Shown: piece after piece, positions 39,224-63,793 of the stretch
How the letters are laid out: the number at the start of each line of letters is the position of its first letter
Numbering within the stretch: the first letter of the stretch is position 1
Source: Psilocybe cubensis
Lineage: Eukaryota
NCBI GenBank assembly: GCA_017499595.2
Contig: CM039001.1
Coordinates: 2,232,001 to 2,296,000, forward strand
Length of the DNA stretch: 64,000 bases
Reading direction: 5' to 3'
Made by a program: the position numbers and the translations under genes
Notes under the pieces: model-generated
Database searches by the model: none
What the model saw: only the letters and a program-made list of their open reading frames with translations
What the model was told of the DNA's origin: nothing

Positions 39224-39807
39224 GAAAGGCAAGGTGATTGGAAAACGAAGGAGAATCCAGCTGTGGTGGACGGGAATGAAAAGCTATGGTTGAAGGGAGG
39301 CGCCTTAAATCATGCTGTTCTTGCAAGCAAAATGAACACTCAAAAGGTCTTCTCCGGGGTCTATGTCCAGACAAGGAAGGGGAAGGACAAAAGAGGCAGT
39401 CACAGGGCAATAAGGAGGGAGATAAAAATAGACGATCCTGAACACTTCTCGCCAAACTCTCACGAATTCTATTTCACTAGGGCTAACCTGACGGCATCGA
39501 GAATTGAATCAAGTCTGTCAGTTGAGTCGAATCTTCGAGTGACCATTCCAATGGAAGTCCCGTTCGCTCACCATGTCTGCTTGGATACGACGATAGACTT
39601 CATATCCACTGCTATGACTCACTGAACCACTCTTAAGTGCACACTTGGATAGCCGCCGAATCTCCGCGGTCGTCTTGCTGCTCCGATCACCTTCGCTGAC
39701 TTGGAATGTAGAAACATACTATAAATATTTTCACTTCCATCAAAGCATACTTAATATTATCTCAGTCAGATATGCCATCATTCCAGCCACCCCCGTGCTT
39801 CAGCATT

Positions 39808-41821
39808 TTAAGCTATATCGGCGGTCTGTTGTTTAGGTTCCTTGTGCATGTCGGCTACAACGCTCATGTTAGCTGTCTGTCTTGAACATCTCAGATGACT
39901 GAATGCCATTTACCACCCTGGAATTTACAGCGATTTTGCTTGAAAAAGTGACATTTCGTCGTCATTGGGCAGTAATGTCCATAGCAGCAGTCATCGCCCC
40001 ATAGACAGATGTCCCCTAGTATGGACTTGTCAACGCAGCTGCAGGCCAGAAGATATTTGTAGCCTTTACCTTTGTTCCTTGACGGACATGGCGACTTTTT
40101 AGCGTTGGTGCGAATCTCAGCATAGTGTTCAGGTTGGAGCAGATAGTCATGGCCGTATTTACAGTCGACACCATGCTTACAGGTGGACAAATAGAAAAGC
40201 GTGCACGGAGGTGGTTTGTCTAAAATCATATACCCGGTCAGATCCAACCCAATAGAAGAGAAGAAGAATCACGCACGCTTGGAGAGGAGCTATAACACGT
40301 AATATTAGATGGGAAAGAAAGATACTTTGGAAGCTTTAGCTCACGATATTAGGATTTATTCGTCGCGATCGAGAATTCGTGAGAGATATTTGCGGAATGT
40401 TGGGCGAGCCATGCTCACTCTCATCACTAGAACTTGAGTTGCCACTGGGATCCAATTCAGGAGTGGCTGCGCGTTTAGGGACTGTTTGAAGAGCAGATGA
40501 GTAACTAGGTGGCTGTGAAGATTGTTTGCGGGAGGAGTCTTCGGGCTCTATCGAGGCGAAAGGAAGTGCATCGAAGCATTGCCTGATGTTAGATAGGGAA
40601 GGCCTGTGACCTTTCGGCCGCTCTACAGGGGGGAGAACTACCGGGGTGGGTACCGTGGCAAGGGTAGGCACCGGGATCGAGTTAATGTGGGAGGGTGGTG
40701 CCGGCATCCCCAGCTTCTGCGAGATGAAAAGGTCTGGAATACTAAAGGAAGGGAGCTCAAGCTCGTTAATCCCTGCTGCCATGTCTGTATAACTTCGTAA
40801 AAGAATCAATTTATTCTTGAAACCAGAGGTTATGTGGGATCGAATGGTCGTAACGTATCCGTTATCATGGCATCCTGGAAATGTTTGTCTAGAAGGCGTG
40901 CCAAGAAAAATGAGAATGGTTAACCATGTACCTCCAAATATTATCTTTTCAGTTTGTGGAAATCTGATCTCGTCTTCTAATAATGCTAGAAATACAAGCT
41001 CAGCGAGCATACTCAACTGTATTGTGGCGTTTACCTTTGATTTTGGCATCAGCGGCTTCCTTCGCGCTTCCGACATCGAGCATGATGAAACGTTCCGCCG
41101 CTTGATTGAATCCCATGATAAAGTCATCGAACTTGTTCTTCGCTGCTGCAAGCCCTGCCCGACCGAAAGTATCAATCAGACCCCGTCTGTTGAAAAATAT
41201 ATAGACCCAAAGTTGATATCGATTGACGCCGTTGGTTGATGCGAGGTGTTGCATTATAGCGTCAGATAACTTCTGCGCAGCAATATGACCTCCAGACTGT
41301 CCTTGAGAAATGAGTTGGCTATTGAAGATGGCACCATCGCCGTCTAGGAGAGCGACGACTCGGTGACCCTGACAAGGGTTAATTGTTTATCGTCAAGAGC
41401 CATCGTTTGGGTCACCTTTAGCTGCTTTTCCAGATCGTCCGCTTTTTTCTCCAATTCTTCCGTCCTCTTTAAGGAATCCTGTAACTTTTGTTCGCTGTGG
41501 ACACGTTCCGTCTCATAACTGGACAAGGCTCGCTTATGAATATTCAAGTCGTTCTCCAATTGCTTGATGGTGACACGAGAAGAGGTCTCATTTTCTAGAA
41601 TTCTGATGATTTCACCTTAACACGTTAGACCGATGGTCAGCTAAAGTTCCAGTTAAACAAATGTAAATCACTTCGCAGTTGTTCCAGATAGATGCCACTA
41701 AGGTACACGACTATCATTTAGCTCAAATATAGATTCATGATGAAACAGGAACCTACACATTATTTTGGGCGAGGGGAGTATGTGATCCCGGCGCTTCTTT
41801 CTTATCGTTTTCGTAAATCAT
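39808..41821 (-). CDS. Coiled-coil + NYN/PIN-like (DUF7923-type) domain + CCCH zinc-finger protein, paralogue B
   Basis: LENDLNIHKRAL coiled coil, ALLDGDGAIFN..QGQSGGHIAA, LDVGSAKEAADAKIK, GCHDNGY, CTLFYLSTCKHGVDCKYGH; start exon tentative. Confidence 0.78.
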
Positions 41822-42476
41822 GATGATATGTGTCGACTATGCTGATGTTCACAAAAGAGATGCTCGAGCTGTGTTTAAAACACAATTTGGAACGGTAAAC
41901 CTGAATCCTTATATTCTGTTAGATTCAACGACCACACCTAAGCTGCATGTCTGATCTCGTTGTGTGCAAATGCGTCCTGGAGATCGAAAACTTGACAAAT
42001 ATAGAGGTGATATACACGTTGAAGCCACGTTCATTTAGACCCTTTCTTGAGTAATTTGTAACCGAACAGGCTAAACATGGTGCTCAGGGACCTTTGATAC
42101 TTCCGGGTGGCTTCTATGTCGACTCTGGGATACTGTGCGAAGGCAAGAAAAAGCAATCTAGCAACTGCAATTACAGGCCTCCTCGCGACATGTGCTGATC
42201 GGCTTTCAGAAAAATATCCAAAAAAGCTCGCGATGAAATGGATGGACCTCAATTTCCTGAGATAACGTGCTAACAGCAAGTAGTTTCATGCTTTGATGAG
42301 GGTTTTATAACGACTCGCCGCAGGCAGCGTGCGATATCAAGCTGTCTCTTGGTAACACATGCATCAGAGATTACTGAGTTCAATCAGTGGAGAGACTGGA
42401 GAGTGGTATAGCATGTGTGCTTGGTGCAGTCGCATGTGCACATAACGTTGAAACTTGAGATCAAGGAAGGCAAGTA

Positions 42477-42730
42477 CACAGGTGACCCTCGGTACGAACA
42501 ATATCTTGACCCGGATTTTGATCGGTGATGGTTAATATGATTTAAGAAATTCTCAAAAAACAAGGGGGCTAATCATATTGCCTTGACGTACCTTAAGGCA
42601 GGTCTAAATCATTATAACCAATTCTTGAGTGGCTTCAGCTCAAGTAGTTTGTTATTTTCCATGAATTAAGAATATTTTAAAATCTGTAGAGAATATTCTT
42701 ACGTAGATTTGCTTTGAGATTCGCTCAACA
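42477..42730. repeat. Left terminal/subterminal region with TTGAG...CTCAA motifs
   Basis: AAGAAATTCTCAAAA (about 42544), CTTGAG-N9-CTCAAG (42624-42644), TTGAG-N5-CTCAA (42714-42728). Confidence 0.6.
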
Positions 42731-43536
42731 TTAGTCAAATCTTATCGGATTCCATCGATTTTGAAGGATCAGAAGTTTTTTTACACATAAATATTCATTC
42801 AATGAGGTATCTACAACGTACACATACAAGGAGGCAATAATGATCAATCATACGCACCATGGTACTTCTACTTGCACCCAACAATCCTTCCTGCCCATCT
42901 CGACTGTTCTTCTCTACTCCGGAAAACTTGAGAAAGATTGAAAGACTTGGAGTAGCGACGATGTTCACCCAATGCGAGCAAAAAGTCTGTATCTTAAATC
43001 AGTATTGAAAAGCATAGGAGCATAGTATTGCGAATAGACTTACTGCCACTTAAACTTGTCCATCTGTTTCCAAAAGACCAGTTAGCCAAGATAAGACACA
43101 AACAATGAGGAGCAGCTTACAGCGATTACTGATTGAATCTACGCATGACCCTGTATCAGTTAGCGGAGCAGAATCATGGACAATATACATGAAAAAGCTC
43201 AAGCGACCATTGTGCCATTGAACATGGTTCCCACATACGGGAAATTGCATAACTAGGGGCAATCACAACAATCAGCTTGCATGCCAAATGCATGCCTGAA
43301 CAGATTCAGGAGCTGCAGAAACAAACAAAATGAAAAAACGGCATGGAACAGCAGTGGTGGATTGAGGAGAGAGCATTTCCCGGTTGCAAAATGCGCACAA
43401 AGGTTAAGCAAACAATTACAAACGATTAGCACTGCCACATTCACCATCCAAATGTCGGTTGTCCCATTCATAAGTTGCAAGCTTTTTGTTACATTAATTA
43501 CATGATTATATAGAAAGAGTAGAATGAATAAGAACT

Positions 43537-45159
43537 TTACACCCCACTACTACCGCTGCTGCAGTTACCTCTGACCTGATAATCCGGACCACGATTATTA
43601 TAAAGATATTGTTGTACTATAGAGGTTCGGGCCATAGAGCTATGTGTGTGTCGTGATGAAGACTGTTCCAGAAATGTACTGGATTGAGTTGGAAGTGAGG
43701 AGGACGTTGAATTCAGTGGTAAAGTTTGTGTTGTAAAGTCAGGGGATGAAGAACGATTGTGCACTGATCTTTGCGTAAACTCTGGAAATTGGTCGGATGT
43801 GGAACTGCTGTCGGTGATCTGCTGTCTGCTGCGTCCATTATTTTTATGCCATTCGTCATCGAGAGACCTTGATTCATCAATATATCTATAGGTAAAAAAA
43901 CATGAATTAGCACATTAAACACACACTCAAGCACAAAACTGTAAACATACTCTTTCCATGCATCCGTCGTAAAGCTCTGACCCCGCAGCTCAAAGCCCTT
44001 CTCAAACCAATCATCTGCTTGGGCCCAAAAGTCATCCCCGTTCGGAATACGACCCACCGTTTTTAGACCCTTTTGACGCTTATTACCCGTTACTGCGTGA
44101 GAGTCGTTGTCTTCGGTGTCATCTTGAAAGCTTTCTTCCTTGCCAAGAAGCTCTTTATTTTCGTATGCAAATCTTCTCTATTGTCGTTGTTTAGTGGACA
44201 TAGGAAATAGACAGTAAATTGATATCGTAATAGACTTACCAAAAGAACATTTCGTATCTGATATTCGACTTCTTGACTGCCTGACAGTGTCCCATGATGA
44301 TATTTGTCTGCACATGCTTGTGTAAACCTTTTGAGGCTGCAGCGTTTGCGACCAAACAAGCTGTCACGAATCTAAAGCAATATGTATTTTTAATATTTAG
44401 TACACATTATTGCTGAACATAAGACTCACATCTTGTCGGAATGCATTCCGAACGCTTGATGCCACCCGTTTTGCTTCTGACCTCCAGCGTAGCTCACGAG
44501 CGGGTTTGCCGAATATATTTTGCATCGAATACTTTGAGGCATCTTTGCTAACTTCAGCCTAGATAATAAAGGATAGAGTAAGTCCGAGTCCATACATGAA
44601 TGATTATGGAGATGTACACTCACCTCAACGTCAACATGGAGAAGCTTGAAGCATGTGCGCTTGGGCATGTATATATGCTGCTGCGATAAGTGTCGAAGGT
44701 CCTCCTAGAGAGAAAATGAACCGAAGTTCACCTTAAACTGAGACATGAAACGCACCTTCTGATTTTTTGTAATTTCCCATGTTTTCTGCAGGCGGATTTG
44801 TAGCTCTTTAAATGTTCCCTTTAGATCTAGTCCTCCCAGGCTACCATTGACTGATGCAAATGCGGTGAGAATCTTCTGTTCAACGGAAAATTGACACGCA
44901 AGTGCAAATATCCCAGTCAGAGCAGAAGCGCGATCTAACGGAATCTGTTGCTCAGCTCCAAGCTGAAGTAGTGCAATAACCAATCAGAGAACTTCAATAA
45001 CTCAAAAGAAATGTCTCTTACAGAGTATAAAAGGTGTAGATCATTGTGGCGTTCTGGTGTAAGCCCGAATTGAAGGCTGAGAGTATCAATAAATAGTTCA
45101 ACACTATCAGGTTGTACTGGATGCTCAAAGGGTGGGGAAGCGTTTGATCCGGCTGACAT
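43537..45159 (-). CDS. Transposon-borne second gene, hypothetical protein (copy 1), about 6 exons
   Basis: Exons join in frame: MSAGSNAS..DLHLLYS/LGAEQ..ITKNQK/EDLRHL..HVDVE/AEVSK..NAFRQD/IRDSL..RNVLL/RRFAYENK..GRIPNGDDFWAQADDW..AWKE/YIDES..SGV*. Confidence 0.75.
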
Positions 45160-45300
45160 TGGATGAGCTGAACTTGACAAAGCAGTGTTTTGAGCAGGAA
45201 GATGTTGAACAAAAGCGGGAATTGCACTCACTCTGCAGTTCTTGGTTTTATCCGTTCCGACCAAAGCTGTGCAACATTTTCTTGTTGATTTCAAATAAAC

Positions 45301-45335
45301 GGCGCGCGACGCGTCAGTAACGCGTCTGAGCGCGT
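45301..45335. promoter_or_regulatory. Cluster of ACGCGT (MCB-like) motifs upstream of the transposon second gene
   Basis: ACGCGT at 45309-14 and 45320-25, GCGCGT at 45330-35; about 150 bp upstream of the ATG at 45159. Confidence 0.45.
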
Positions 45336-45836
45336 TCGAACACATTTGAGCTCAGGGGAAGGGCCAAAATCAATATGTATAATGCGGAAGGGAGTGAACA
45401 ACAGAAAAGAGATTCGCCCCCCAAATTTCCCATGACCAAATCGGAGTTCAAACAATTGACATCATTGACAGACTCGGATGAGGATCTTAAGTTGTCAACA
45501 CCATCCCCAACTGCTAAAAAACCTGGAAGTTGTGCTGAAGAGGGCTTAGCAGTAACCTCTAGCTATGCACTTTTCTCAATACTGATATCACTTTTATGTA
45601 ATCCTTAATTAACATTGAATTACCTAGCTATCCTGCACTAAAACAATAGAATGTAATTGACTAATGACACAACGCGAAGGAACAAGACACAAGGCAATGG
45701 GGACGCGATGCCATTGCACAGATTGCTGGGGACGTTGTTGAAGTCCGGCTGCTGCACCCTAGGCTGTCAAGTGTGTTGAGTGTGTGTCAAATAGCGATGG
45801 CATTCAGGACCTCCGTGTGTCATTGTTGATATAAGG

Positions 45837-45967
45837 AGTGGCAGCCGCGGCGCATAGTCAGATAGTGGCAGGCGGGCAGATGGAGTAGTGGCAGCCGCGG
45901 CGCGTAGTCGATAAGTGGCAGCAGATGGAGTAGTGGCAGCCGCGGCGCGTAGTCGACAAGTGGCAGG
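45837..45967. repeat. Internal tandem repeat, about 45-50 bp x 2.8
   Basis: AGTGGCAGCCGCGGCGC(G/A)TAGTC...AGTGGCAG..CAGATGGAGT units starting 45837, 45887, 45932 (copy 2 at +9635). Confidence 0.85.
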
Positions 45968-46425
45968 TGCGTGCTGTTGTCTGTTTAGTAAAGAAACTGG
46001 TATGAAAAGTAAACAAGCGCACCTTACATATCTCCCCTTCCATGGATATTCATTGCAACCCCAGTTAGCAGCATTCTCGGTGAAGAGGCCGGTACGGGAT
46101 GGGACACAACCTGCAAGAGTGCCAGGTTTGCCAGACACGTTGTGAATGTGGCAGCATTCTCAGTAAGACCTGCGTGGGTCATTGGCCGGCAGCGCGTATG
46201 CAGAGAGTGGAGAGGGGTCGTTGGCCGGAGGTGTGTAGGCAGAGAGTGGAGATGCTTCAATCCGCGTCCTCTCTCTCTGCCCGCTGCCGAATCACTCGCC
46301 GTATCACCATTCTGTGCAGTAGTGAGTTGCAGCGCTCACGCATGGCCATGTCGAGTAGCGCTGCACAAGTCCCATCAGTATCAATGGTGACGGAGTGTGT
46401 TGCTGCTGGGCTTACCTTGACGAGC

Positions 46426-46748
46426 AGGACAATTAAACTTCTTGTCATCGTGGGCGGCCGAGTTTAGATGGCTGTTGAGTCCAGCCAGAGTGGTACATTT
46501 CTTCTCGCAAAGGAAACATGCGTACGCTTGTTCATTCCAGGACGCCTCCCAGGCGATGTAGCCCGTGACAGTCGACGGGCCAGCCTCAATGCGTTTGATC
46601 GAAATATTTGGGACGATACCCACCTTGTGAACTGCAGCTGTAACCTGGTGGCGCGTGACTCTGTGGCAGCCCGATTCGATGTGCAATGCAATCCCAGACG
46701 GGCTTTTAAACAGAAAGGACATTTAAAGTCGCGACCTTTATGTGCCAA
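46426..46748 (-). pseudogene. Captured, frameshifted C2H2 zinc-finger gene fragment (copy 1; copy 2 at 56061-56383)
   Basis: AHKGRDFKCPFC in one frame, then FKSPSGIALHIESGC...YACFLCEKKCTTLAGLNSHLNSAAHDDKKFNCP in another. Confidence 0.7.
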
Positions 46749-46777
46749 CGAATTCTGGTGCTATTGATCTCATAGAC

Positions 46778-46993
46778 AAAATCCGAAAAGTTGAATATGC
46801 GCTCAAGGGGCGCAACCTCGGATGGCTCAGGGGCGTGACCTTTTACAGAACCGTCAAACATTTGCCACGCAATTGCCAGTCGCTGTCGGTTGAGTGAACG
46901 CAGTATAAGCAAACGTACGCCGACGTAGTTTATCCCAAGATGGAGGCTGACAAGAATGAAGAGTAGGATGTGTGTCGATAAAGGCGACGACAC
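46778..46993 (-). pseudogene. Captured RUS1/DUF647-family gene fragment (copy 1; copy 2 at 56413-56628)
   Basis: LVSLHLGINYVGVR.L.LRSLNRQR....W..F......P.P.EVA..ERIF resembles, from recall, the conserved RUS1-family segment. Confidence 0.65.
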
Positions 46994-47141
46994 GCCGGAG
47001 GTGCATATGCAGAGAGGGGAGAGTGGGTCGCGGGGGGCCGGAGGTGCGTATGCAGAGAGTGGAGAGTGGGTTGCGGGGTGGCAAGCTGTGGTGAGAGAAA
47101 GAGAAGCAAAGCAACAGAATGGTAGCCCCAGTCACATGACT

Positions 47142-50100
47142 TTAACGACCATCTGGGTGTTGAGTTGGCGGCGGCAGATGGGGCATTGGAACCCACGACG
47201 ATGATGAATTGGGAACCCAATGCTGAGGGTATGGCATCGTATACCCTTGGTACTGCTGTGGTTGTCGATTGTAATGTGGATAAGCTGTATTAGAGGGTGC
47301 TGGTGGCCAAAAGAAGTAAGGATATGGCTGGGCCTGGGAAACCACTGGCGAGGGTGGTGGCAATGATGAAGCAGCAGTCTGTGCAGATGGAAGTGGCGAA
47401 AGGGGAGACACACTAGGAATACTAGCCTGTCGATCTTGGCCTATGTCACGATGTCGACTGTGGCCTTGCCCTTTAAGTTTATGAGCCGCTTTCTCCCTTC
47501 CTCGTGTGGCACGACCGCTGGTTGCTGCCGCCTTTCGTGTATCAATAGTACGGGAAACAGCTTCGTGTATTGTTTCCAATTTGTTAGGAATCGGTCGTGC
47601 AGGAACGCGAAATTGCTGCAGATGAATAGAATTGCGCATCTGCCCCATATTAAGAACACGGTGGTCAGGGTTGACTTTATGTTCAATGACTGGAGTTTTG
47701 ATGGTTGTTGCCTTGCGCTCTTGATACACATATCGAACACCACTCGCTGTGCAGTTATATTGTGCGCAGTCATGTGGCGCGTTGACAGTGCACAAGATAT
47801 TCTGTAGAAAGATGATTAGTACACAATGAAATAGTACAAGACCTTTGTATAAACTGCACATACCGAGAGAGGAAGGAATGACCAGGTATCTTCCAGAGGC
47901 ATCAGAGCAGGCATTTGAAGCTTGCTGTTAACCTGGTTTGTAGACACTGACTGCAACAGTAGGCCTTCGGGATATCCATTGGCACCATTGCTTGATCCCA
48001 GCTGCAGTACGATTTCCTTAACACAGGCAACAAAGGGTGCTCGAGGTGCGCCATTGGGCTGACGTGCCTGCACTATAACGTACTGTCCTGGTTCACAATT
48101 TTCGCCGTTTTCGAGTTGAACTTGCTTGCAGGTTTGAAATGAGTGGTTTCCGAGGGCAACATTGGGAAGGAGTGTGCCAGTAAGAGTTTGCGTAAGAGGC
48201 CTGGGAGGGGTTTTATCGACTATACATCGTCCTAATATTACATGGTCAGATTAACAGTATTCATATGCATAAATAGAACAACATACCCGATGAAAATAAC
48301 GGATCGGTGGCAGCCATTAGCCCAAGATAGCTGGGAATAATTGTATCAATGGCAATAATTCTGTTCGGGCCTGGACCAATGCTTCGCCAATCTCTGGCAG
48401 TAGTATGCTGGATGTCACGATGGCGATTCTGGAGAAAGAGCCCACCACTCAGTAAATGTCGGATACGATTGCCTTCGGCGAAAGCCATGGCGATGTCTCG
48501 CGATGGGGATTGGCGATTGCTATGAATACTTTTAGCTCGAATCACTGCATTGAATGATTCAAAAGATTCAGTAGCAAATATGATTGCAGGACCAAACCGT
48601 CGCACATGTTCTACCAAGTGCAACAAGACGTGAAACTTCTTTTTATTAAACCAAGCACACGTCCATTGAGCCGTACTAATCAAAAATGAATCCACTTCTT
48701 GTGCTAGAGTCTCCTAAATGTATGAACTGTTAGAATATTCTGGCAGATGTGAAAAAAGAAACTTACTCACAAGATATTTGTCCATATCGTCAATTTTGGG
48801 CTGATAGATAAGTGGAACAAGTCTTGAAAGCGACACCCAGGCGTCAAAGACATTGGTGGGAACAAGATCGTAAATGACATGAGGTGCCACTTGCGATATC
48901 GCTTGGAAATCCCGGCCAGTGAGAGAACCAGCATACTAGACCAAGGTCTTACCACCAAGGGGTGATATACCCAAGCCACGGACATCAAAGCTGTTGAGTC
49001 GCTGAATTAACAGCTTTTTGCCTTCATCGTTAAGCTGGTTTTGAACAAGGTCACGCCAAAAATACTTCACAAAACCCAGCAAAACAACATGAAGTATTTC
49101 AACTGGTGTGTCTTGATGTGGATCGATTTCTAAATACCAAACATTAGTGCTGAGAAGGAGACTATCAAAGAAACAAGTCCATACCGTCCAAATCCCAAAT
49201 TGGGCTTATAATATCATCCGGTAGATTTTGTATTGCTTCATCAAGCGCAGCTTGCTTTTCCATCGGCCCCTTTTTCTTTGCGTACGACGTGAGTAACTTC
49301 TCAAGAAAGAAATCCTGGTAAGTGTCCTTGATACCGGTCTTTGTTTTCTCGGTTTTGAGCTTGGTTTTGGAGCCAATACTGGATGCTAAATTGAGATAGG
49401 ACTGCAATATTTGTATAGTCTCTTGTTTGCATCGCAACCTGCCAGTCTAGCAAAGTTTTGTTAGTTGTAAATAGACCGTCAACTGAAAACAAGAAATCTT
49501 ACCTCTAAAAAAGCTGTAATACGTTTGACCATTGATTCCATGCTTTCTGGCTTGCGTTTTCGACTGACTGCTACATCATCTTGATGATCAGAAGTAGCTG
49601 GACTGTGTGGTATGCTCTCGCCTCCATTTTCTGAAGCAACAGGACTGTACAATGGTGACTGATTAGAATCTGGAACATTGGACAGGTCAGAAAGATCAAC
49701 ATTTGTTTCACTTCCGTCCTGGCCCTTTGCCCAGCATACCCGACAGAACAGCTTGCCGCACATACCTATATGGCAGGCAAACTCACTCTGCATTGGGTTA
49801 TCACCTAAGAAAGCAAATGCTGCTGGATACGCAAGCACCACTTCGTTATATACACAGTCCCAGGCCCATATACCTGTCTCTTGAGCTGACCTAAGAGGAT
49901 TTCAGCCATACTTCATACCCGCGCTGCGCAAAATATCAAAATGAGATGCTTACTTTATTTGGTTAACAACTCCTTCCAACATTTCGAGAGGCCGTGCAAC
50001 ATTTGAGGTACATATGAAGTGAATATTATATTCTTTGGCCAATTGGTCACGCGGCAACCCAGCTAAGGTAAATAAGTAGCTGTTATGTTCGTTCCACTGC

Positions 50101-51865
50101 TTGGACTGATTGCCAGATGTGTCATCGCAATACAGCCAGAGTGGAAGACACACTGTTCGGTGACCTTGTGCCAATTTTCTCCAGCGATTACCTGTAGCAG
50201 GATCCGTATGTGTCCAAGACACAATCTCGGGATGTTGGTCCTCTCGGATACCTATAGTTAGCAAGTTGTCAGTAAATGTTAATATTAATATAGTAGAGAA
50301 ATACATGCCAATGATGTGAGAAGGATGAGGTAGTCTATATCTGCCACAATCGCGACAAAGAGCAGGAAAATTCTTCAGTAATTGATCATCAAAAATAGTG
50401 CGTTCACGGTCCTTCCGAACAACCCATCCAACCGTTCCATTTTCTGATGTTTCCTTTTCCATGACCCACGAACACGCATACATGTGCCCGCTCTTGACAT
50501 ACCACCGATACGGAATAACACATGAGCCATCTTTTAACATAGTTGGCTCAAAAATGTAATAGTCAGCATTGTGTAACCGTATCATGGGTGTCGTTCTTTC
50601 AGGAATTATTTCGTGCAACCATTTTGCAGCTTGTCGTGCTTCTTGGATGGACTTGCCGGTGTCTTCTGGGAAAAAGCTCAGGTACGGTCGCACTTTTGGA
50701 TTGCTCATTTCCTACTTGGCACAGGTAAATAACCGAATCACAAACACAACATTTCACTAATGAACAAACCTGGGCAAGAATTTGGGATATGTTGTTCATG
50801 CTGTAATTTGTGCCACGGGTGCTTGTATATGGAATAGTATCAATGCCACACATTTTTTGAAGTGCAGAATTTAGAGTCTTCATAGTCTTGATGCTGGGGA
50901 CATTCCGAACTTCGTTCACGCGTAAAATCCACAAAAATAAATCAAGTTGTTTACGCGAAAACACAGAACGGGGCAAGTGCATCAAGATATCTAAAGAACA
51001 TGTCTAAAAGTGTGTCAGTAACAGCTTATTGGTGAGCAGAAAATAGAGTTGAACGCACAATTTTATCCTGCCATGGATACCATTCTTCCAGCTCCCTAGG
51101 ATCCAAATTTTGTGTTCGTGTACGCTTTTTGACTGAAGGACGAGCGGGGAGATCATCAGCTGTGTCATTATAATGTATTTAGTGTTGGCCAAACATGCAG
51201 CAGAAAAAGCACGCACCACTTGAGTCCGACTCCTCACTGGCTACCAAAATATCCCCTACCGGGTCATCATTTTCTTCAACACCATCTAGTAGATCAAGTA
51301 ACCACTGACATACGCCTTCACGAACACGTATACAAGGCGTAGGCTCATCTTCTTGGTCAGGATCTGTACTGCCTTGAGTTGCCTCGTACAAATTCCAGTC
51401 AAAGCCGGTAAGAGGAGAAACTGGGCCAGACTGGGTTGGAGCTTGAAGAGGAGGGGATGACGGAGTTGCATGTGAAGTTCCAGATTGAAGAGGAGGGCAG
51501 CCAAAGTGATACATAGGCTGGCGAGGATTTGACGAAGAGGAAACTAAAAGAGCTCTCAAAGCATCGTCGATGATTCTGTGGTTGGAAATGGATGCCGTGG
51601 GATTACCGCGGACTTCGTTGATTGTCGAACTAGCTGGTGTTGGCTGCCGCTGCCGGCTTAGTGCCGCAAGATGAGTGCTAGTGCGTTCATGTCCAGGGCA
51701 ATTGAATGCCTTTCTGGCGCGTGAATCGCAGCACACTTTGCAATAATAGACAGTATCACCGTTGTCGGCAGTGCTTTGAGTCCAAACTAAAACGATGTCA
51801 AGCAATGTTGAGTGAATTTCATGATGTCATAAGTCCCGCACACCTTTTGGATCAAGCTGTGACAT
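47142..51865 (-). pseudogene. CMC/EnSpm-like DDE transposase, multi-exon, one premature stop (copy 1)
   Basis: N-terminal CKVC..H..H finger; YCDDTSGN (D1), FLGDNP (D2), CRVC, EILH, FHVLLH..RRFGP..FATESFE (E); TAG at 48938-48936 in TLV*YAGSLTGRDF. Confidence 0.85.
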
Positions 51866-51989
51866 TATGGTCAGAGCTACAATTGAAATATGTTTAATGA
51901 GCGTGGTTTCAAAATGTGTTGAGCACAAGAGTTAAGTAAAATCTATTCTGTGTATTTACTTCGCTCATTCTTAAGCCACGGATTTAAAA

Positions 51990-52109
51990 TATTCCTGAGC
52001 TCAATTTTCAAATGTATTTGCATCCGTTTTGAGATTTTCTTGAGAATGATCTCAAGTTTGGTCGGAGCGTCGGAATCTTAACCAAGATCTAAACGAAGGG
52101 CCGGCCGTG
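51990..52109. repeat. Right terminal/subterminal region with TTGAGA/TCTCAA motifs
   Basis: TGAGCTCA (51996), TTTTGAGATTTTCTT (inverse of the left-end AAGAAATTCTCAAAA, 1 mismatch), TTGAGA-ATGA-TCTCAA (52040-52055). Confidence 0.6.
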
Positions 52110-53171
52110 TACACAGGTGACCCTCGGTACGAACAATATCTTGACCCGGATTTTGATCGGTGATGGTTAATATGATTTAAGAAATTCTCAAAAAACAAGG
52201 GGGCTAATCATATTGCCTTGACGTACCTTAAGGCAGGTCTAAATCATTATAACCAATTCTTGAGTGGCTTCAGCTCAAGTAGTTTGTTATTTTCCATGAA
52301 TTAAGAATATTTTAAAATCTGTAGAGAATATTCTTACGTAGATTTGCTTTGAGATTCGCTCAACATTAGTCAAATCTTATCGGATTCCATCGATTTTGAA
52401 GGATCAGAAGTTTTTTTACACATAAATATTCATTCAATGAGGTATCTACAACGTACACATACAAGGAGGCAATAATGATCAATCATACGCACCATGGTAC
52501 TTCTACTTGCACCCAACAATCCTTCCTGCCCATCTCGACTGTTCTTCTCTACTCCGGAAAACTTGAGAAAGATTGAAAGACTTGGAGTAGCGACGATGTT
52601 CACCCAATGCGAGCAAAAAGTCTGTATCTTAAATCAGTATTGAAAAGCATAGGAGCATAGTATTGCGAATAGACTTACTGCCACTTAAACTTGTCCATCT
52701 GTTTCCAAAAGACCAGTTAGCCAAGATAAGACACAAACAATGAGGAGCAGCTTACAGCGATTACTGATTGAATCTACGCATGACCCTGTATCAGTTAGCG
52801 GAGCAGAATCATGGACAATATACATGAAAAAGCTCAAGCGACCATTGTGCCATTGAACATGGTTCCCACATACGGGAAATTGCATAACTAGGGGCAATCA
52901 CAACAATCAGCTTGCATGCCAAATGCATGCCTGAACAGATTCAGGAGCTGCAGAAACAAACAAAATGAAAAAACGGCATGGAACAGCAGTGGTGGATTGA
53001 GGAGAGAGCATTTCCCGGTTGCAAAATGCGCACAAAGGTTAAGCAAACAATTACAAACGATTAGCACTGCCACATTCACCATCCAAATGTCGGTTGTCCC
53101 ATTCATAAGTTGCAAGCTTTTTGTTACATTAATTACATGATTATATAGAAAGAGTAGAATGAATAAGAACT

Positions 53172-54794
53172 TTACACCCCACTACTACCGCTGCTGCAGT
53201 TACCTCTGACCTGATAATCCGGACCACGATTATTATAAAGATATTGTTGTACTATAGAGGTTCGGGCCATAGAGCTATGTGTGTGTCGTGATGAAGACTG
53301 TTCCAGAAATGTACTGGATTGAGTTGGAAGTGAGGAGGACGTTGAATTCAGTGGTAAAGTTTGTGTTGTAAAGTCAGGGGATGAAGAACGATTGTGCACT
53401 GATCTTTGCGTAAACTCTGGAAATTGGTCGGATGTGGAACTGCTGTCGGTGATCTGCTGTCTGCTGCGTCCATTATTTTTATGCCATTCGTCATCGAGAG
53501 ACCTTGATTCATCAATATATCTATAGGTAAAAAAACATGAATTAGCACATTAAACACACACTCAAGCACAAAACTGTAAACATACTCTTTCCATGCATCC
53601 GTCGTAAAGCTCTGACCCCGCAGCTCAAAGCCCTTCTCAAACCAATCATCTGCTTGGGCCCAAAAGTCATCCCCGTTCGGAATACGACCCACCGTTTTTA
53701 GACCCTTTTGACGCTTATTACCCGTTACTGCGTGAGAGTCGTTGTCTTCGGTGTCATCTTGAAAGCTTTCTTCCTTGCCAAGAAGCTCTTTATTTTCGTA
53801 TGCAAATCTTCTCTATTGTCGTTGTTTAGTGGACATAGGAAATAGACAGTAAATTGATATCGTAATAGACTTACCAAAAGAACATTTCGTATCTGATATT
53901 CGACTTCTTGACTGCCTGACAGTGTCCCATGATGATATTTGTCTGCACATGCTTGTGTAAACCTTTTGAGGCTGCAGCGTTTGCGACCAAACAAGCTGTC
54001 ACGAATCTAAAGCAATATGTATTTTTAATATTTAGTACACATTATTGCTGAACATAAGACTCACATCTTGTCGGAATGCATTCCGAACGCTTGATGCCAC
54101 CCGTTTTGCTTCTGACCTCCAGCGTAGCTCACGAGCGGGTTTGCCGAATATATTTTGCATCGAATACTTTGAGGCATCTTTGCTAACTTCAGCCTAGATA
54201 ATAAAGGATAGAGTAAGTCCGAGTCCATACATGAATGATTATGGAGATGTACACTCACCTCAACGTCAACATGGAGAAGCTTGAAGCATGTGCGCTTGGG
54301 CATGTATATATGCTGCTGCGATAAGTGTCGAAGGTCCTCCTAGAGAGAAAATGAACCGAAGTTCACCTTAAACTGAGACATGAAACGCACCTTCTGATTT
54401 TTTGTAATTTCCCATGTTTTCTGCAGGCGGATTTGTAGCTCTTTAAATGTTCCCTTTAGATCTAGTCCTCCCAGGCTACCATTGACTGATGCAAATGCGG
54501 TGAGAATCTTCTGTTCAACGGAAAATTGACACGCAAGTGCAAATATCCCAGTCAGAGCAGAAGCGCGATCTAACGGAATCTGTTGCTCAGCTCCAAGCTG
54601 AAGTAGTGCAATAACCAATCAGAGAACTTCAATAACTCAAAAGAAATGTCTCTTACAGAGTATAAAAGGTGTAGATCATTGTGGCGTTCTGGTGTAAGCC
54701 CGAATTGAAGGCTGAGAGTATCAATAAATAGTTCAACACTATCAGGTTGTACTGGATGCTCAAAGGGTGGGGAAGCGTTTGATCCGGCTGACAT
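53172..54794 (-). CDS. Transposon-borne second gene, hypothetical protein (copy 2)
   Basis: ORF translations identical to copy 1 at +9635. Confidence 0.75.
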
Positions 54795-56776
54795 TGGATG
54801 AGCTGAACTTGACAAAGCAGTGTTTTGAGCAGGAAGATGTTGAACAAAAGCGGGAATTGCACTCACTCTGCAGTTCTTGGTTTTATCCGTTCCGACCAAA
54901 GCTGTGCAACATTTTCTTGTTGATTTCAAATAAACGGCGCGCGACGCGTCAGTAACGCGTCTGAGCGCGTTCGAACACATTTGAGCTCAGGGGAAGGGCC
55001 AAAATCAATATGTATAATGCGGAAGGGAGTGAACAACAGAAAAGAGATTCGCCCCCCAAATTTCCCATGACCAAATCGGAGTTCAAACAATTGACATCAT
55101 TGACAGACTCGGATGAGGATCTTAAGTTGTCAACACCATCCCCAACTGCTAAAAAACCTGGAAGTTGTGCTGAAGAGGGCTTAGCAGTAACCTCTAGCTA
55201 TGCACTTTTCTCAATACTGATATCACTTTTATGTAATCCTTAATTAACATTGAATTACCTAGCTATCCTGCACTAAAACAATAGAATGTAATTGACTAAT
55301 GACACAACGCGAAGGAACAAGACACAAGGCAATGGGGACGCGATGCCATTGCACAGATTGCTGGGGACGTTGTTGAAGTCCGGCTGCTGCACCCTAGGCT
55401 GTCAAGTGTGTTGAGTGTGTGTCAAATAGCGATGGCATTCAGGACCTCCGTGTGTCATTGTTGATATAAGGAGTGGCAGCCGCGGCGCATAGTCAGATAG
55501 TGGCAGGCGGGCAGATGGAGTAGTGGCAGCCGCGGCGCGTAGTCGATAAGTGGCAGCAGATGGAGTAGTGGCAGCCGCGGCGCGTAGTCGACAAGTGGCA
55601 GGTGCGTGCTGTTGTCTGTTTAGTAAAGAAACTGGTATGAAAAGTAAACAAGCGCACCTTACATATCTCCCCTTCCATGGATATTCATTGCAACCCCAGT
55701 TAGCAGCATTCTCGGTGAAGAGGCCGGTACGGGATGGGACACAACCTGCAAGAGTGCCAGGTTTGCCAGACACGTTGTGAATGTGGCAGCATTCTCAGTA
55801 AGACCTGCGTGGGTCATTGGCCGGCAGCGCGTATGCAGAGAGTGGAGAGGGGTCGTTGGCCGGAGGTGTGTAGGCAGAGAGTGGAGATGCTTCAATCCGC
55901 GTCCTCTCTCTCTGCCCGCTGCCGAATCACTCGCCGTATCACCATTCTGTGCAGTAGTGAGTTGCAGCGCTCACGCATGGCCATGTCGAGTAGCGCTGCA
56001 CAAGTCCCATCAGTATCAATGGTGACGGAGTGTGTTGCTGCTGGGCTTACCTTGACGAGCAGGACAATTAAACTTCTTGTCATCGTGGGCGGCCGAGTTT
56101 AGATGGCTGTTGAGTCCAGCCAGAGTGGTACATTTCTTCTCGCAAAGGAAACATGCGTACGCTTGTTCATTCCAGGACGCCTCCCAGGCGATGTAGCCCG
56201 TGACAGTCGACGGGCCAGCCTCAATGCGTTTGATCGAAATATTTGGGACGATACCCACCTTGTGAACTGCAGCTGTAACCTGGTGGCGCGTGACTCTGTG
56301 GCAGCCCGATTCGATGTGCAATGCAATCCCAGACGGGCTTTTAAACAGAAAGGACATTTAAAGTCGCGACCTTTATGTGCCAACGAATTCTGGTGCTATT
56401 GATCTCATAGACAAAATCCGAAAAGTTGAATATGCGCTCAAGGGGCGCAACCTCGGATGGCTCAGGGGCGTGACCTTTTACAGAACCGTCAAACATTTGC
56501 CACGCAATTGCCAGTCGCTGTCGGTTGAGTGAACGCAGTATAAGCAAACGTACGCCGACGTAGTTTATCCCAAGATGGAGGCTGACAAGAATGAAGAGTA
56601 GGATGTGTGTCGATAAAGGCGACGACACGCCGGAGGTGCATATGCAGAGAGGGGAGAGTGGGTCGCGGGGGGCCGGAGGTGCGTATGCAGAGAGTGGAGA
56701 GTGGGTTGCGGGGTGGCAAGCTGTGGTGAGAGAAAGAGAAGCAAAGCAACAGAATGGTAGCCCCAGTCACATGACT

Positions 56777-59700
56777 TTAACGACCATCTGGGTGTTGAGT
56801 TGGCGGCGGCAGATGGGGCATTGGAACCCACGACGATGATGAATTGGGAACCCAATGCTGAGGGTATGGCATCGTATACCCTTGGTACTGCTGTGGTTGT
56901 CGATTGTAATGTGGATAAGCTGTATTAGAGGGTGCTGGTGGCCAAAAGAAGTAAGGATATGGCTGGGCCTGGGAAACCACTGGCGAGGGTGGTGGCAATG
57001 ATGAAGCAGCAGTCTGTGCAGATGGAAGTGGCGAAAGGGGAGACACACTAGGAATACTAGCCTGTCGATCTTGGCCTATGTCACGATGTCGACTGTGGCC
57101 TTGCCCTTTAAGTTTATGAGCCGCTTTCTCCCTTCCTCGTGTGGCACGACCGCTGGTTGCTGCCGCCTTTCGTGTATCAATAGTACGGGAAACAGCTTCG
57201 TGTATTGTTTCCAATTTGTTAGGAATCGGTCGTGCAGGAACGCGAAATTGCTGCAGATGAATAGAATTGCGCATCTGCCCCATATTAAGAACACGGTGGT
57301 CAGGGTTGACTTTATGTTCAATGACTGGAGTTTTGATGGTTGTTGCCTTGCGCTCTTGATACACATATCGAACACCACTCGCTGTGCAGTTATATTGTGC
57401 GCAGTCATGTGGCGCGTTGACAGTGCACAAGATATTCTGTAGAAAGATGATTAGTACACAATGAAATAGTACAAGACCTTTGTATAAACTGCACATACCG
57501 AGAGAGGAAGGAATGACCAGGTATCTTCCAGAGGCATCAGAGCAGGCATTTGAAGCTTGCTGTTAACCTGGTTTGTAGACACTGACTGCAACAGTAGGCC
57601 TTCGGGATATCCATTGGCACCATTGCTTGATCCCAGCTGCAGTACGATTTCCTTAACACAGGCAACAAAGGGTGCTCGAGGTGCGCCATTGGGCTGACGT
57701 GCCTGCACTATAACGTACTGTCCTGGTTCACAATTTTCGCCGTTTTCGAGTTGAACTTGCTTGCAGGTTTGAAATGAGTGGTTTCCGAGGGCAACATTGG
57801 GAAGGAGTGTGCCAGTAAGAGTTTGCGTAAGAGGCCTGGGAGGGGTTTTATCGACTATACATCGTCCTAATATTACATGGTCAGATTAACAGTATTCATA
57901 TGCATAAATAGAACAACATACCCGATGAAAATAACGGATCGGTGGCAGCCATTAGCCCAAGATAGCTGGGAATAATTGTATCAATGGCAATAATTCTGTT
58001 CGGGCCTGGACCAATGCTTCGCCAATCTCTGGCAGTAGTATGCTGGATGTCACGATGGCGATTCTGGAGAAAGAGCCCACCACTCAGTAAATGTCGGATA
58101 CGATTGCCTTCGGCGAAAGCCATGGCGATGTCTCGCGATGGGGATTGGCGATTGCTATGAATACTTTTAGCTCGAATCACTGCATTGAATGATTCAAAAG
58201 ATTCAGTAGCAAATATGATTGCAGGACCAAACCGTCGCACATGTTCTACCAAGTGCAACAAGACGTGAAACTTCTTTTTATTAAACCAAGCACACGTCCA
58301 TTGAGCCGTACTAATCAAAAATGAATCCACTTCTTGTGCTAGAGTCTCCTAAATGTATGAACTGTTAGAATATTCTGGCAGATGTGAAAAAAGAAACTTA
58401 CTCACAAGATATTTGTCCATATCGTCAATTTTGGGCTGATAGATAAGTGGAACAAGTCTTGAAAGCGACACCCAGGCGTCAAAGACATTGGTGGGAACAA
58501 GATCGTAAATGACATGAGGTGCCACTTGCGATATCGCTTGGAAATCCCGGCCAGTGAGAGAACCAGCATACTAGACCAAGGTCTTACCACCAAGGGGTGA
58601 TATACCCAAGCCACGGACATCAAAGCTGTTGAGTCGCTGAATTAACAGCTTTTTGCCTTCATCGTTAAGCTGGTTTTGAACAAGGTCACGCCAAAAATAC
58701 TTCACAAAACCCAGCAAAACAACATGAAGTATTTCAACTGGTGTGTCTTGATGTGGATCGATTTCTAAATACCAAACATTAGTGCTGAGAAGGAGACTAT
58801 CAAAGAAACAAGTCCATACCGTCCAAATCCCAAATTGGGCTTATAATATCATCCGGTAGATTTTGTATTGCTTCATCAAGCGCAGCTTGCTTTTCCATCG
58901 GCCCCTTTTTCTTTGCGTACGACGTGAGTAACTTCTCAAGAAAGAAATCCTGGTAAGTGTCCTTGATACCGGTCTTTGTTTTCTCGGTTTTGAGCTTGGT
59001 TTTGGAGCCAATACTGGATGCTAAATTGAGATAGGACTGCAATATTTGTATAGTCTCTTGTTTGCATCGCAACCTGCCAGTCTAGCAAAGTTTTGTTAGT
59101 TGTAAATAGACCGTCAACTGAAAACAAGAAATCTTACCTCTAAAAAAGCTGTAATACGTTTGACCATTGATTCCATGCTTTCTGGCTTGCGTTTTCGACT
59201 GACTGCTACATCATCTTGATGATCAGAAGTAGCTGGACTGTGTGGTATGCTCTCGCCTCCATTTTCTGAAGCAACAGGACTGTACAATGGTGACTGATTA
59301 GAATCTGGAACATTGGACAGGTCAGAAAGATCAACATTTGTTTCACTTCCGTCCTGGCCCTTTGCCCAGCATACCCGACAGAACAGCTTGCCGCACATAC
59401 CTATATGGCAGGCAAACTCACTCTGCATTGGGTTATCACCTAAGAAAGCAAATGCTGCTGGATACGCAAGCACCACTTCGTTATATACACAGTCCCAGGC
59501 CCATATACCTGTCTCTTGAGCTGACCTAAGAGGATTTCAGCCATACTTCATACCCGCGCTGCGCAAAATATCAAAATGAGATGCTTACTTTATTTGGTTA
59601 ACAACTCCTTCCAACATTTCGAGAGGCCGTGCAACATTTGAGGTACATATGAAGTGAATATTATATTCTTTGGCCAATTGGTCACGCGGCAACCCAGCTA

Positions 59701-61500
59701 AGGTAAATAAGTAGCTGTTATGTTCGTTCCACTGCTTGGACTGATTGCCAGATGTGTCATCGCAATACAGCCAGAGTGGAAGACACACTGTTCGGTGACC
59801 TTGTGCCAATTTTCTCCAGCGATTACCTGTAGCAGGATCCGTATGTGTCCAAGACACAATCTCGGGATGTTGGTCCTCTCGGATACCTATAGTTAGCAAG
59901 TTGTCAGTAAATATTAATATTAATATAGTAGAGAAATACATGCCAATGATGTGAGAAGGATGAGGTAGTCTATATCTGCCACAATCGCGACAAAGAGCAG
60001 GAAAATTCTTCAGTAATTGATCATCAAAAATAGTGCGTTCACGGTCCTTCCGAACAACCCATCCAACCGTTCCATTTTCTGATGTTTCCTTTTCCATGAC
60101 CCACGAACACGCATACATGTGCCCGCTCTTGACATACCACCGATACGGAATAACACATGAGCCATCTTTTAACATAGTTGGCTCAAAAATGTAATAGTCA
60201 GCATTGTGTAACCGTATCATGGGTGTCGTTCTTTCAGGAATTATTTCGTGCAACCATTTTGCAGCTTGTCGTGCTTCTTGGATGGACTTGCCGGTGTCTT
60301 CTGGGAAAAAGCTCAGGTACGGTCGCACTTTTGGATTGCTCATTTCCTACTTGGCACAGGTAAATAACCGAATCACAAACACAACATTTCACTAATGAAC
60401 AAACCTGGGCAAGAATTTGGGATATGTTGTTCATGCTGTAATTTGTGCCACGGGTGCTTGTATATGGAATAGTATCAATGCCACACATTTTTTGAAGTGC
60501 AGAATTTAGAGTCTTCATAGTCTTGATGCTGGGGACATTCCGAACTTCGTTCACGCGTAAAATCCACAAAAATAAATCAAGTTGTTTACGCGAAAACACA
60601 GAACGGGGCAAGTGCATCAAGATATCTAAAGAACATGTCTAAAAGTGTGTCAGTAACAGCTTATTGGTGAGCAGAAAATAGAGTTGAACGCACAATTTTA
60701 TCCTGCCATGGATACCATTCTTCCAGCTCCCTAGGATCCAAATTTTGTGTTCGTGTACGCTTTTTGACTGAAGGACGAGCGGGGAGATCATCAGCTGTGT
60801 CATTATAATGTATTTAGTGTTGGCCAAACATGCAGCAGAAAAAGCACGCACCACTTGAGTCCGACTCCTCACTGGCTACCAAAATATCCCCTACCGGGTC
60901 ATCATTTTCTTCAACACCATCTAGTAGATCAAGTAACCACTGACATACGCCTTCACGAACACGTATACAAGGCGTAGGCTCATCTTCTTGGTCAGGATCT
61001 GTACTGCCTTGAGTTGCCTCGTACAAATTCCAGTCAAAGCCGGTAAGAGGAGAAACTGGGCCAGACTGGGTTGGAGCTTGAAGAGGAGGGGATGACGGAG
61101 TTGCATGTGAAGTTCCAGATTGAAGAGGAGGGCAGCCAAAGTGATACATAGGCTGGCGAGGATTTGACGAAGAGGAAACTAAAAGAGCTCTCAAAGCATC
61201 GTCGATGATTCTGTGGTTGGAAATGGATGCCGTGGGATTACCGCGGACTTCGTTGATTGTCGAACTAGCTGGTGTTGGCTGCCGCTGCCGGCTTAGTGCC
61301 GCAAGATGAGTGCTAGTGCGTTCATGTCCAGGGCAATTGAATGCCTTTCTGGCGCGTGAATCGCAGCACACTTTGCAATAATAGACAGTATCACCGTTGT
61401 CGGCAGTGCTTTGAGTCCAAACTAAAACGATGTCAAGCAATGTTGAGTGAATTTCATGATGTCATAAGTCCCGCACACCTTTTGGATCAAGCTGTGACAT
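56777..61500 (-). pseudogene. CMC/EnSpm-like DDE transposase with the same premature stop (copy 2)
   Basis: Same motifs; TAG at 58573-58571. Confidence 0.85.
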
Positions 61501-61799
61501 TATGGTCAGAGCTACAATTGAAATATGTTTAATGAGCGTGGTTTCAAAATGTGTTGAGCACAAGAGTTAAGTAAAATCTATTCTGTGTATTTACTTCGCT
61601 CATTCTTAAGCCACGGATTTAAAATATTCCTGAGCTCAATTTTCAAATGTATTTGCATCCGTTTTGAGATTTTCTTGAGAATGATCTCAAGTTTGGTCGG
61701 AGCGTCGGAATCTTAACCAAGATCTAAACGAAGGGCCGGCCGTGTAGCAAGCAAGTTAATATTTCAATCGGAGTTCTAAAATGCTGTGATGCGTCACAA

Positions 61800-61815
61800 A
61801 CGCGTCAGGACGCGT
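61800..61815. promoter_or_regulatory. Paired MCB (ACGCGT) elements upstream of CDT1
   Basis: ACGCGT at 61800-05 and 61810-15, about 100 bp upstream of the ATG; cdt1 is an MBF target in fission yeast. Confidence 0.6.
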
Positions 61816-61916: not shown

Positions 61917-63793
61917 ATGTCGGATCTGTATACTTCTCTGCAAGTTTCTCCTAGAAAGAAAAGATGCCCTCCTGAGCTGGATGATGGACTTACAATGACA
62001 CCCAAAAAGCTGAGAACCGCGTAAATCTTCCTTGAATTGTCGAAACCGCAAGCTTTACTGACGTCACGCAAGCCCTCCCACACCCCCACCCTCTAGCTCT
62101 CGTGTAAAAACCATCTCTCTAAAACAGACATTGCCACTCCCTCTGGCCCGTTTGTACAACATTCAAACGGCACTGCAGCATGCACTTTCGCATGCCCTAG
62201 CGACCTGCGCCATTTCGCCCACAACAGACTCCGGACATGTTAAGAATGTCTTAAATCATATCTCTCTGACAACATATACTGGCCTTTCTACGACTTTTGA
62301 TGTAGATGATCTGAAGCGCCTCTGCTGGTTATGGGAGTGGGATGGCAAATCTTCATGCAATACCAAACGATTGGAAAAGACTGAAGACGAAGATAACCCT
62401 TTTATAATGGATGCACCATCGGAGCCACCTCTGACAGATTGGTCTCGAGGATCAATGGGTATTATCATCACTCCCGCTACTCATTTTTCCAAAGTTGATC
62501 GCAAACGCGTTCCTGCCTATGGTATCGGTATAGAAGTTGAAATGGACATTGACAAAGACATGGGAGGGGGGATGGCTGCAGTGGCTCGCTGGACTGCTGG
62601 AGCTGAGACTCGACTGTCAGAGCTCTCCACAAAATTGAAGCGCTGGATAGAGGTAATGTCTTTGGACTTCGTAAACTTTGGCTTTCTTTCAACCTGTTAT
62701 CGCTTTTAGCTTAATGGCGACGCTGCTTCATTACCAGAAGTTCCTCTTGCCGACCTTCCTGAACTATCTGCTCCTAAAGTGTCTTCTCTTACACGCACTC
62801 TAGCTTCCTTCTCTCCTTCATCTGCTTCTTCATTACAGCTTCCTACGGTACCTTCATCTCCTTCCCGCTCACCTGTCAAAAAGACTGCCCGTGATTTGCC
62901 GATACATCCTCCCACTACCTTGTTGACCAAGTCCCCTTCCAAGAAGAACACTGTATTATTTCCACAAACACCGTCGCGACGTGACAGAAATATCTTTCCA
63001 AGTTCAGGCTCAGGACCGCCTCAGACTCCTTCAACGGCCGCTTCATCTCCATCCAAGGATTCCTTACCTTCCACCCCAGTCCGCCAACAGGGACCTGACA
63101 ATACTCCATTACAAACACCATCTACATCCCGTCGCCAAGCACTCTATGAGCGTGTCAGGCAGAGGTCCTTATCTATGTCTCCCACAAAGGCACCCCGTGA
63201 TGCTAATGGAAAAACCCCAACTCGAGATCAGATGTTGAAGATGTCACAAGATGAGTTAAGGAGAAGATGCCTTCTAGGACGACTGAGTGGCATCGCAGAA
63301 AGCATCTGGATGTAACTATCTTCAAAGCAGTTATCGTTATCTTTGTCATCTAACTTGCCCATCTAGGCTTTTCTCCAACCCGAGTAGTGGTGGTTCTTCA
63401 ACTCCTTCACGAAAAAGGCGTGCCCTACCTACTCGCGATGTTGTAACATCCATTGTCAAATCGTCTCCAGTGCCACTTTCAACCTCAGAGGCAAATGAAT
63501 CAATTACTATGCTAATTAAGCTCTGTCCATTCTTCTTGAAAAAGTTGGACATATCAGGGGACGATTGGCTGGAGATGCCTGCTCCCGTTTCAGCTACTGC
63601 TGCGAGCGCAGGAGATTTAGGCTCTCCCAGTAAGGTTGGACAGGCTGTTCCTTCCAGCCCTGGTCGGCTTAAGGGGAAAGATGAAAGCGCACAAGAATTG
63701 GTCAATCGTAGTCCCCGCCGAATCAAAAGAGAAATAGGTGGTCTACGTGAAGTTAGAGAAATTATTCGACGCGAGCTGGAACTCCAGGATTGA
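61917..63793 (+). CDS. CDT1: DNA replication licensing factor Cdt1-like protein
   Basis: Many S/T-P CDK-type sites; [13 protein letters not shown]-terminal winged-helix-like segment [29 protein letters not shown] typical of Cdt1_C. Confidence 0.75.

Follow-up and report, generated by a model that had tools for sequence, protein, structure and literature searches.

In the window, that is, the whole 64,000-nucleotide stretch of Psilocybe cubensis DNA analyzed here, two copies of one DNA transposon lie head to tail as TA-element-TA-element-TA (42475-61746, period 9635), and the available observations support a working model of how this dimer arose. The model, which we regard as moderately probable, proposes that a nonsense-mutant, ESTA-type element was duplicated in place by a transposase acting in trans, a copy on the sister chromatid being strand-transferred into the TA adjacent to an element end. 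The dimer is carried by contig C4 of a 46.6-Mb, 21-contig assembly, and its features are as follows.

42475 to 42476, plus strand: left TA of the target duplication, in the context GGCAAG-TA-CACAGG (TA at 26/26 outer ends, 13 sites).
42477 to 52109, minus strand: element copy 1, 9633 bp, with its genes on the minus strand (same ends in a third copy on C3).
43540 to 45159, minus strand: second gene, spliced, function unassigned, ends approximate; conserved in the family.
46427 to 46993, minus strand: captured piece of 567 bp, 99.8% identical to C9:497840-498406 (C2H2 zinc-finger-like ORF).
47142 to 51865, minus strand: predicted RAG1-like DDE transposase gene with several introns, in copy 1 (alignment of relatives; fold of homolog P0003).
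48936 to 48938, minus strand: TAG stop in frame within a conserved exon (GKTLV*YAGS), lying upstream of both HxxxH and the catalytic Glu; shared by the two copies.
52110 to 52111, plus strand: junction TA between the abutted ends, GCCGTG-TA-CACAGG (joint reads in runs X14 and X15).
52112 to 61744, minus strand: element copy 2, same genes, one difference at 59913 (self-match to copy 1).
61745 to 61746, plus strand: right TA of the target duplication, in the context GCCGTG-TA-GCAAG (sequence read directly).

At a lag of 9635, positions 42474-52111 match 52109-61746 over 9638 bases with one mismatch, a G at 50278 against an A at 59913, which is the sole difference between the two 9633-bp copies. 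This self-match, spanning 42474-61746, bears out a sequence-only reading of the same DNA that had described a period of 9635, two base-complete copies and a single shared TA; its further claims, that the duplication breaks exactly at the termini and that a random segmental duplication is an insufficient explanation, also hold, the element being a complete CMC-related DNA transposon and the breaks coinciding with its TA-flanked termini. That reading was correct as to the TA, but in treating the dimer as a 2-bp case it overlooked that the copies overlap by three bases (GTA), a G being the last base of the left flank too, which leaves the dimer locus by itself insufficient to set a 2-bp duplication. 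The inverted ends of the element are short and imperfect (CACAGGTGACCCTCGG / CACGGCCGGCCCTTCG), with weak similarity over ~85 bp; subterminal repeat arrays as in plant CACTA were absent among the 20 largest repeat families, and a 160-nt fold gave no sign of a cruciform at the junction (z = -1.12; 30 of 200 shuffles were as stable). To the left, the neighbor of the dimer is a DUF7923 gene on the minus strand, and to the right two ACGCGT motifs (61800-61815) lie ~55 bp from the dimer, before a CDT1_C-domain gene (62062-63793). We take these motifs to be MCB-like, and an effect of the dimer on a cell-cycle promoter is possible.

The length of the target duplication can be read from the genome at large. 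Across 13 insertion sites, comprising the dimer locus, the C3 copy and 11 sites of a sister family, all 26 outer ends are TA-flanked CAC...GTG termini with variable adjoining bases; these counts are lower bounds, made with end-search patterns that did not demand TA and with three older relatives of undefined ends (C4:977 kb, two on C12) left out. The genome-wide terminus search that the sequence-only reading had proposed thus returned the same boundaries and TA at every site, and the interpretation of TA as the target duplication stands. The C3 copy, too, has CAC...GTG ends flanked by TA, next to different bases (...T-TA and TA-T...), and together with the 11 sister sites it rules out a 3-bp GTA duplication. 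A protein search of the genome gave 22 matches, which fall on the two dimer copies, the C3 copy, the 11 sister-family copies and the three older relatives, and run X6 holds one further site of the element family with TA on either side. No other element-element junction was found in the genome, where the pattern matched three times, twice without similarity to either family. Two solo 57-bp sister-family ends (L094, L101), 88% identical to the family and lying beside one shared flanking sequence on C4 and C9, are probably a segmental duplicate. In addition, the metagenome contigs L193 and L194 each carry a related element, apparently one and the same, whose flanks beyond TA-CAC and GTG-TA differ, which hints from outside the genome at the same TA boundary rule.

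The sister family is 11.2 kb long and present in 11 copies in the genome, eight of which are practically identical, which points to recent transposase activity in the lineage; in the two copies tested, the exons of its transposase gene are free of stops. Its 5' end matches the element end at 14 of 16 bases, and the other end matches much less well. The sister family also contains a TET/JBP-like ORF (L033:6085-6792; PF12851, E 4.8e-5, below the curated cut-off).

Evidence for the dimer beyond the assembly comes from short-read data, four of the 16 listed runs (X1, X6, X14 and X15) having been compared with 38146-52145. X1 consists of contigs, possibly from the same source DNA, and X14 and X15 are raw reads from another study and year, with heterozygous flanks. 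In X1 the flank has a depth of 56.9 and the element 139-188 on the pieces listed, mostly 156-178 (~3x flank), C3-type alleles and the C3-type joint occur at a depth of 58-64, and solely C4 and C3 flanks are found among the loose ends listed. Because the element stands at ~3x flank and the C3 type at ~1x, the C4-type element is present twice in X1, and the read-depth check suggested earlier thereby agrees with two copies at the dimer locus and one elsewhere. The joint 52108->42474 (back 9635) is found in 7 reads of X14 and 8 of X15, against 8.5-11 expected, under assumed anchor lengths, for one junction on one haplotype. The junction is therefore also found beyond the assembly, at roughly one copy per haplotype, although short reads do not place the X14/X15 junction at the dimer locus. 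Among the pieces listed the X1 joint row is zero (a short junction contig would fall inside the compared stretch), X6 has no junction reads, and no monomer or empty allele at the dimer site appears among the loose ends and pieces listed for the four runs. A single copy written twice by the assembler might be suspected, as the copies are 99.99% identical and the runs compared offered no long read across the dimer, but this artefact is largely refuted by the X1 depth, with the C3 type at 1x, and by the junction reads of X14 and X15, and is highly improbable. X14 and X15 also carry internally deleted derivatives of the element (45494-46841, skip 1346; 47744-48889, skip 1144).

The transposase gene of copy 1 contains the motifs CDDTS (~50120), GDNP (~49800), CxxC, HxxxH and ATE (~48568), and in the alignment of relatives (A2) D383, C403/C406, H697/H701 and E718 are invariant or nearly so, with D, D, CxxC, HxxxH and E all kept. 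Pfam and PDB sequence searches left this transposase unrecognized; its best protein relatives are agaric proteins, the top one from Psilocybe cubensis, and of 409 longer transposase relatives the 120 listed are all from mushroom-forming fungi. An AlphaFold model (pLDDT 81) of the homolog P0003, which is 55% identical to the dimer-element exon, resembles RAG1 (Foldseek E 7e-6; Z 11.4, rmsd 4.8, 441 residues) and HzTransib (Z 8.8). Residues ~135-270 and 810-1000 of the P0003 model, compared within the whole model, align with BAH domains (BAHCC1, ZMET2, DNMT1, ORC1, EBS; Z 8-9.6), and the transposase may thus carry chromatin-reader folds. The TAG of copy 1 recurs in copy 2 at 58571-58573 and is missing from the C3 copy and from most other-strain reads; the C3 copy has another stop and a 23.5-kb insertion in its transposase gene, and no intact transposase of the element family was found in the assembly. 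Being common to both dimer copies, the stop would predate the duplication, and since neither copy encodes a full-length transposase, any transposase acted in trans. In X14 and X15 the stop allele at 48938 accounts for 26-27% of reads and other C4-type alleles mostly for 35-45%, and the two copies may differ at this stop in those strains. The insertion on C3 (3214407-3237940) is an element of PlavakaB type, 23.5 kb long and bounded by CATCA..TGATG (PF18759, E 8e-89), nested in the transposase gene and itself containing a chromodomain LTR retrotransposon with 454-bp LTRs. As for the remaining contents, the captured piece lies at 56062-56628 in copy 2 and is absent from the C3 copy, which has ~94 other bases there, and its right junction has four bases (GACA) in common with the C3-type sequence. 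The zinc-finger-like ORF on C9 (L064:4702-5431) adjoins a gene with a PF04884 domain, with a paralogous region (98%) at a distance of 46 kb. Up to 17 of 80 metagenome loci give tblastx matches to the second gene, and all 11 sister-family copies match it weakly.

The element fits ESTA, within the CMCT clade, a placement made by TA, CAC ends, fold and motifs and not by tree. ESTA is defined by a TA duplication, CAC termini, a RAG1-like transposase and the motifs C(2)C and H(3-4)H (Kojima 2025, PMC12730594), and the supplement rows available have 5' ends that start with CAC (PMC12730594). The dimer element has the TA duplication (26 of 26 outer ends), 5'-CA..TG-3' (CAC) termini, a RAG1-like transposase structure in the predicted model of P0003, and C(2)C plus H(3-4)H located between its second D and its E, as found in the relatives' alignment with the motifs present in the element itself; its length is in keeping with the available full-size ESTA entries, which run from 6.6 to 13.3 kb. 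Those entries are from rust fungi plus one 'ESTA-1_AB', whereas the dimer element is from a mushroom, and the main text of Kojima 2025 does not mention Psilocybe and has 'tandem' once, in a reference title (PMC12730594). The sequence-only assignment to CMC/EnSpm survives as CMC-related. It does not survive as canonical EnSpm/CACTA, which is ruled out by ends CACAG/CACGG and TA, as opposed to CACTA/G ends (a CACTA end in the accessible part of PMC1636069) and a 3-bp target duplication (PMC12730594). Transposase_21 (PF02992) was found in 0 of 13 full-length homologs at E <= 1, with just a 13% share in one atlas cluster. Plavaka is likewise ruled out, having PF18759 and TGT..ACA or CATCA..TGATG termini; the dimer element has different termini and a different target duplication, and none of the 13 full-length homologs matches PF18759 (E <= 1). 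Nevertheless, Plavaka and EnSpm/CACTA have the CMCT-type catalytic core in common with the dimer element, Plavaka clusters are nearest in language-model features (0.94), and a KFH...H...E stretch is shared with a Plavaka transposase (E 4e-5).

What is directly observed, and what the model starts from, is the arrangement itself, the TA rule, a chromosomal junction at single copy, a transposase that is dead in either copy, and the near-identity of the two copies. It proposes that a transposase would be supplied in trans to a non-autonomous ESTA-type CMCT transposon, possibly by another family copy in a partner nucleus or in other strains, or by the sister family, which was recently active. Once the locus had replicated, one sister chromatid would supply its copy as donor, either entire or through a single end, and strand transfer would join this to the TA abutting the end of the second sister's copy; a 2-bp staggered attack would duplicate that TA to give flank-TA-E-TA-E-TA-flank. 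The inferred parts are the sister-chromatid origin of the donor, joining by strand transfer and the source of the enzyme. The two dimer copies differ at 1 of 9633 bases, as against 1.09% from the C3 copy, the sole other family member in the assembly (98.9% identity; 99 differences in 9080 aligned bases), and are ~100 times closer to one another than to it, so that the donor was presumably the dimer locus or an identical copy. RAG, according to the accessible text of PMC12337333, cuts to blunt signal ends and hairpin flanks, the flanks being rejoined by end-joining. The predicted fold suggests a similar hairpin cut-and-paste chemistry for this element; if the enzyme is alike, simple end-joining of blunt ends would give GTG-CAC without TA, and the TA found in the junction is what strand transfer into an end-adjacent TA would leave. 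The probability of hitting that TA by chance is at most 1.6e-4 across the genome and 1e-3 for targets within 10 kb, and because a random or local choice of it is this unlikely, either an end-targeting step (unproven) or a rare chance is needed. The low figure hints at an end-specific step, although selection of a rare structure from very many windows weakens the hint, and target preference for end-like DNA was not significant (p = 0.09 and 0.45; 26 half-sites).

Strand transfer, host repair and circle routes all yield the same sequence, and the dimer copies, with one mismatch between them, are not distinguishable insertions. It is possible, if unlikely, that a transposase cut at one end, or an excision with gap repair from the sister, was repaired through template switching, or through unequal exchange between sisters, at TA/GTA microhomology, the element being copied twice. 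The 3-base GTA overlap at the junction would suit such host repair, functional transposase is not encoded in cis, the element lineage has already captured a templated 567-bp host piece, a sign of template-switching repair, and microhomology repair between sisters at target duplications is listed as a source of transposable element tandems in the available text of PMC9659126. However, both boundaries are exact, without filler or deletion, the third base is unremarkable, as G precedes TA at 9 of 26 ordinary ends, and two or three bases would guide poorly among the 516 TA sites inside the element. The sequence-only reading had offered end-targeted or local insertion and a TA-joined circle, both of which fit the sequence, the circle being less likely under RAG-type chemistry. 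Such a circle would form when one end attacks two bases outside the other, as in IS30/IS3 copy-out, and would then recombine or insert beside an end. It would produce the same sequence, the 9.6-kb identity would be ample for recombination, and IS30 makes abutted-end junctions, targets its own ends and always proceeds left-to-right (PMC9333248, in the part accessible). Nonetheless, the circle route is quite unlikely, as the predicted RAG1-like fold indicates hairpin cut-and-paste with blunt ends, the junction reads of X14 and X15 (7, 8) are not above one chromosomal copy, albeit for an element whose cis transposase is dead, and the assembly holds one GTG-TA-CAC junction among 14 element copies with defined ends. 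Likewise, across 80 metagenome loci, in which short-read contigs can collapse dimers, 0 of 10 GTGTACAC words lay at the expected distance upstream of the transposase; 38 of the 80 were inspected for ends with a pattern that demanded TA, and hence provide no test of the TA rule. Improbable, too, is a broader proposal, that ESTA-type RAG1-like transposases regularly target TA beside their own ends in an IS30-like manner, with GTG-TA-CAC as a reactive donor or circle junction. If true, this would place an IS-like abutted-end intermediate in a eukaryotic CMCT element, and the dimer would be a frozen example, kept through transposase loss in both copies and possibly made by the sister-family enzyme.

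The layout has precedent among known dimers. In the accessible portions of McGurk and Barbash 2018 (10.1101/158386, PMC5932611), P, hobo and R1 of Drosophila form head-to-tail dimers by double insertion, a common product of DNA transposons; for P and hobo this layout is taken to identify double insertion, similar dimers are noted in bacteria, and dimers are described as seeding arrays (10.1101/158386). The Psilocybe pair shows the double-insertion features of head-to-tail order, intact termini and one target duplication at the junction, and, as in the P, hobo and R1 descriptions available, consists of complete elements at low copy number that offer a substrate for unequal exchange. It differs in that the duplication is a fixed TA, uninformative on site strength, and in that a fungal CMCT element is involved, both copies being transposase-dead and identical but for one base. 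The jockey dimers described there have different 5' ends, unlike the Psilocybe pair (10.1101/158386). Tandem hAT insertions in Marasmius oreades are mentioned without detail in the part of PMC9674265 available, and a literature search beyond which lay Repbase Reports and most subscription papers turned up no ESTA dimer and none of a fungal CMCT element. The dimer structure is thus of a known kind, found here in a recently named RAG1-like group, and does not change current models. It nonetheless offers a natural case, clean and backed by reads, from a fungus and from the RAG1-related CMCT clade, with the TA rule set by 13 sites. It is also a substrate for testing whether RAG-like transposases attack the DNA next to their own ends, and whether a pair of this sort collapses, moves as a 19-kb unit or grows into arrays. 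In IS30, the spacer between abutted ends is 2 bp. Tandem dimers of IS30 and IS21 have ends that face each other across a short spacer in direct orientation, as here (PMC9333248, accessible part). In that same portion, however, the IS30/IS21 junctions are active, unstable intermediates, whereas the Psilocybe transposase has a predicted RAG1-like fold and the dimer junction is maintained in other samples at roughly one copy per haplotype.
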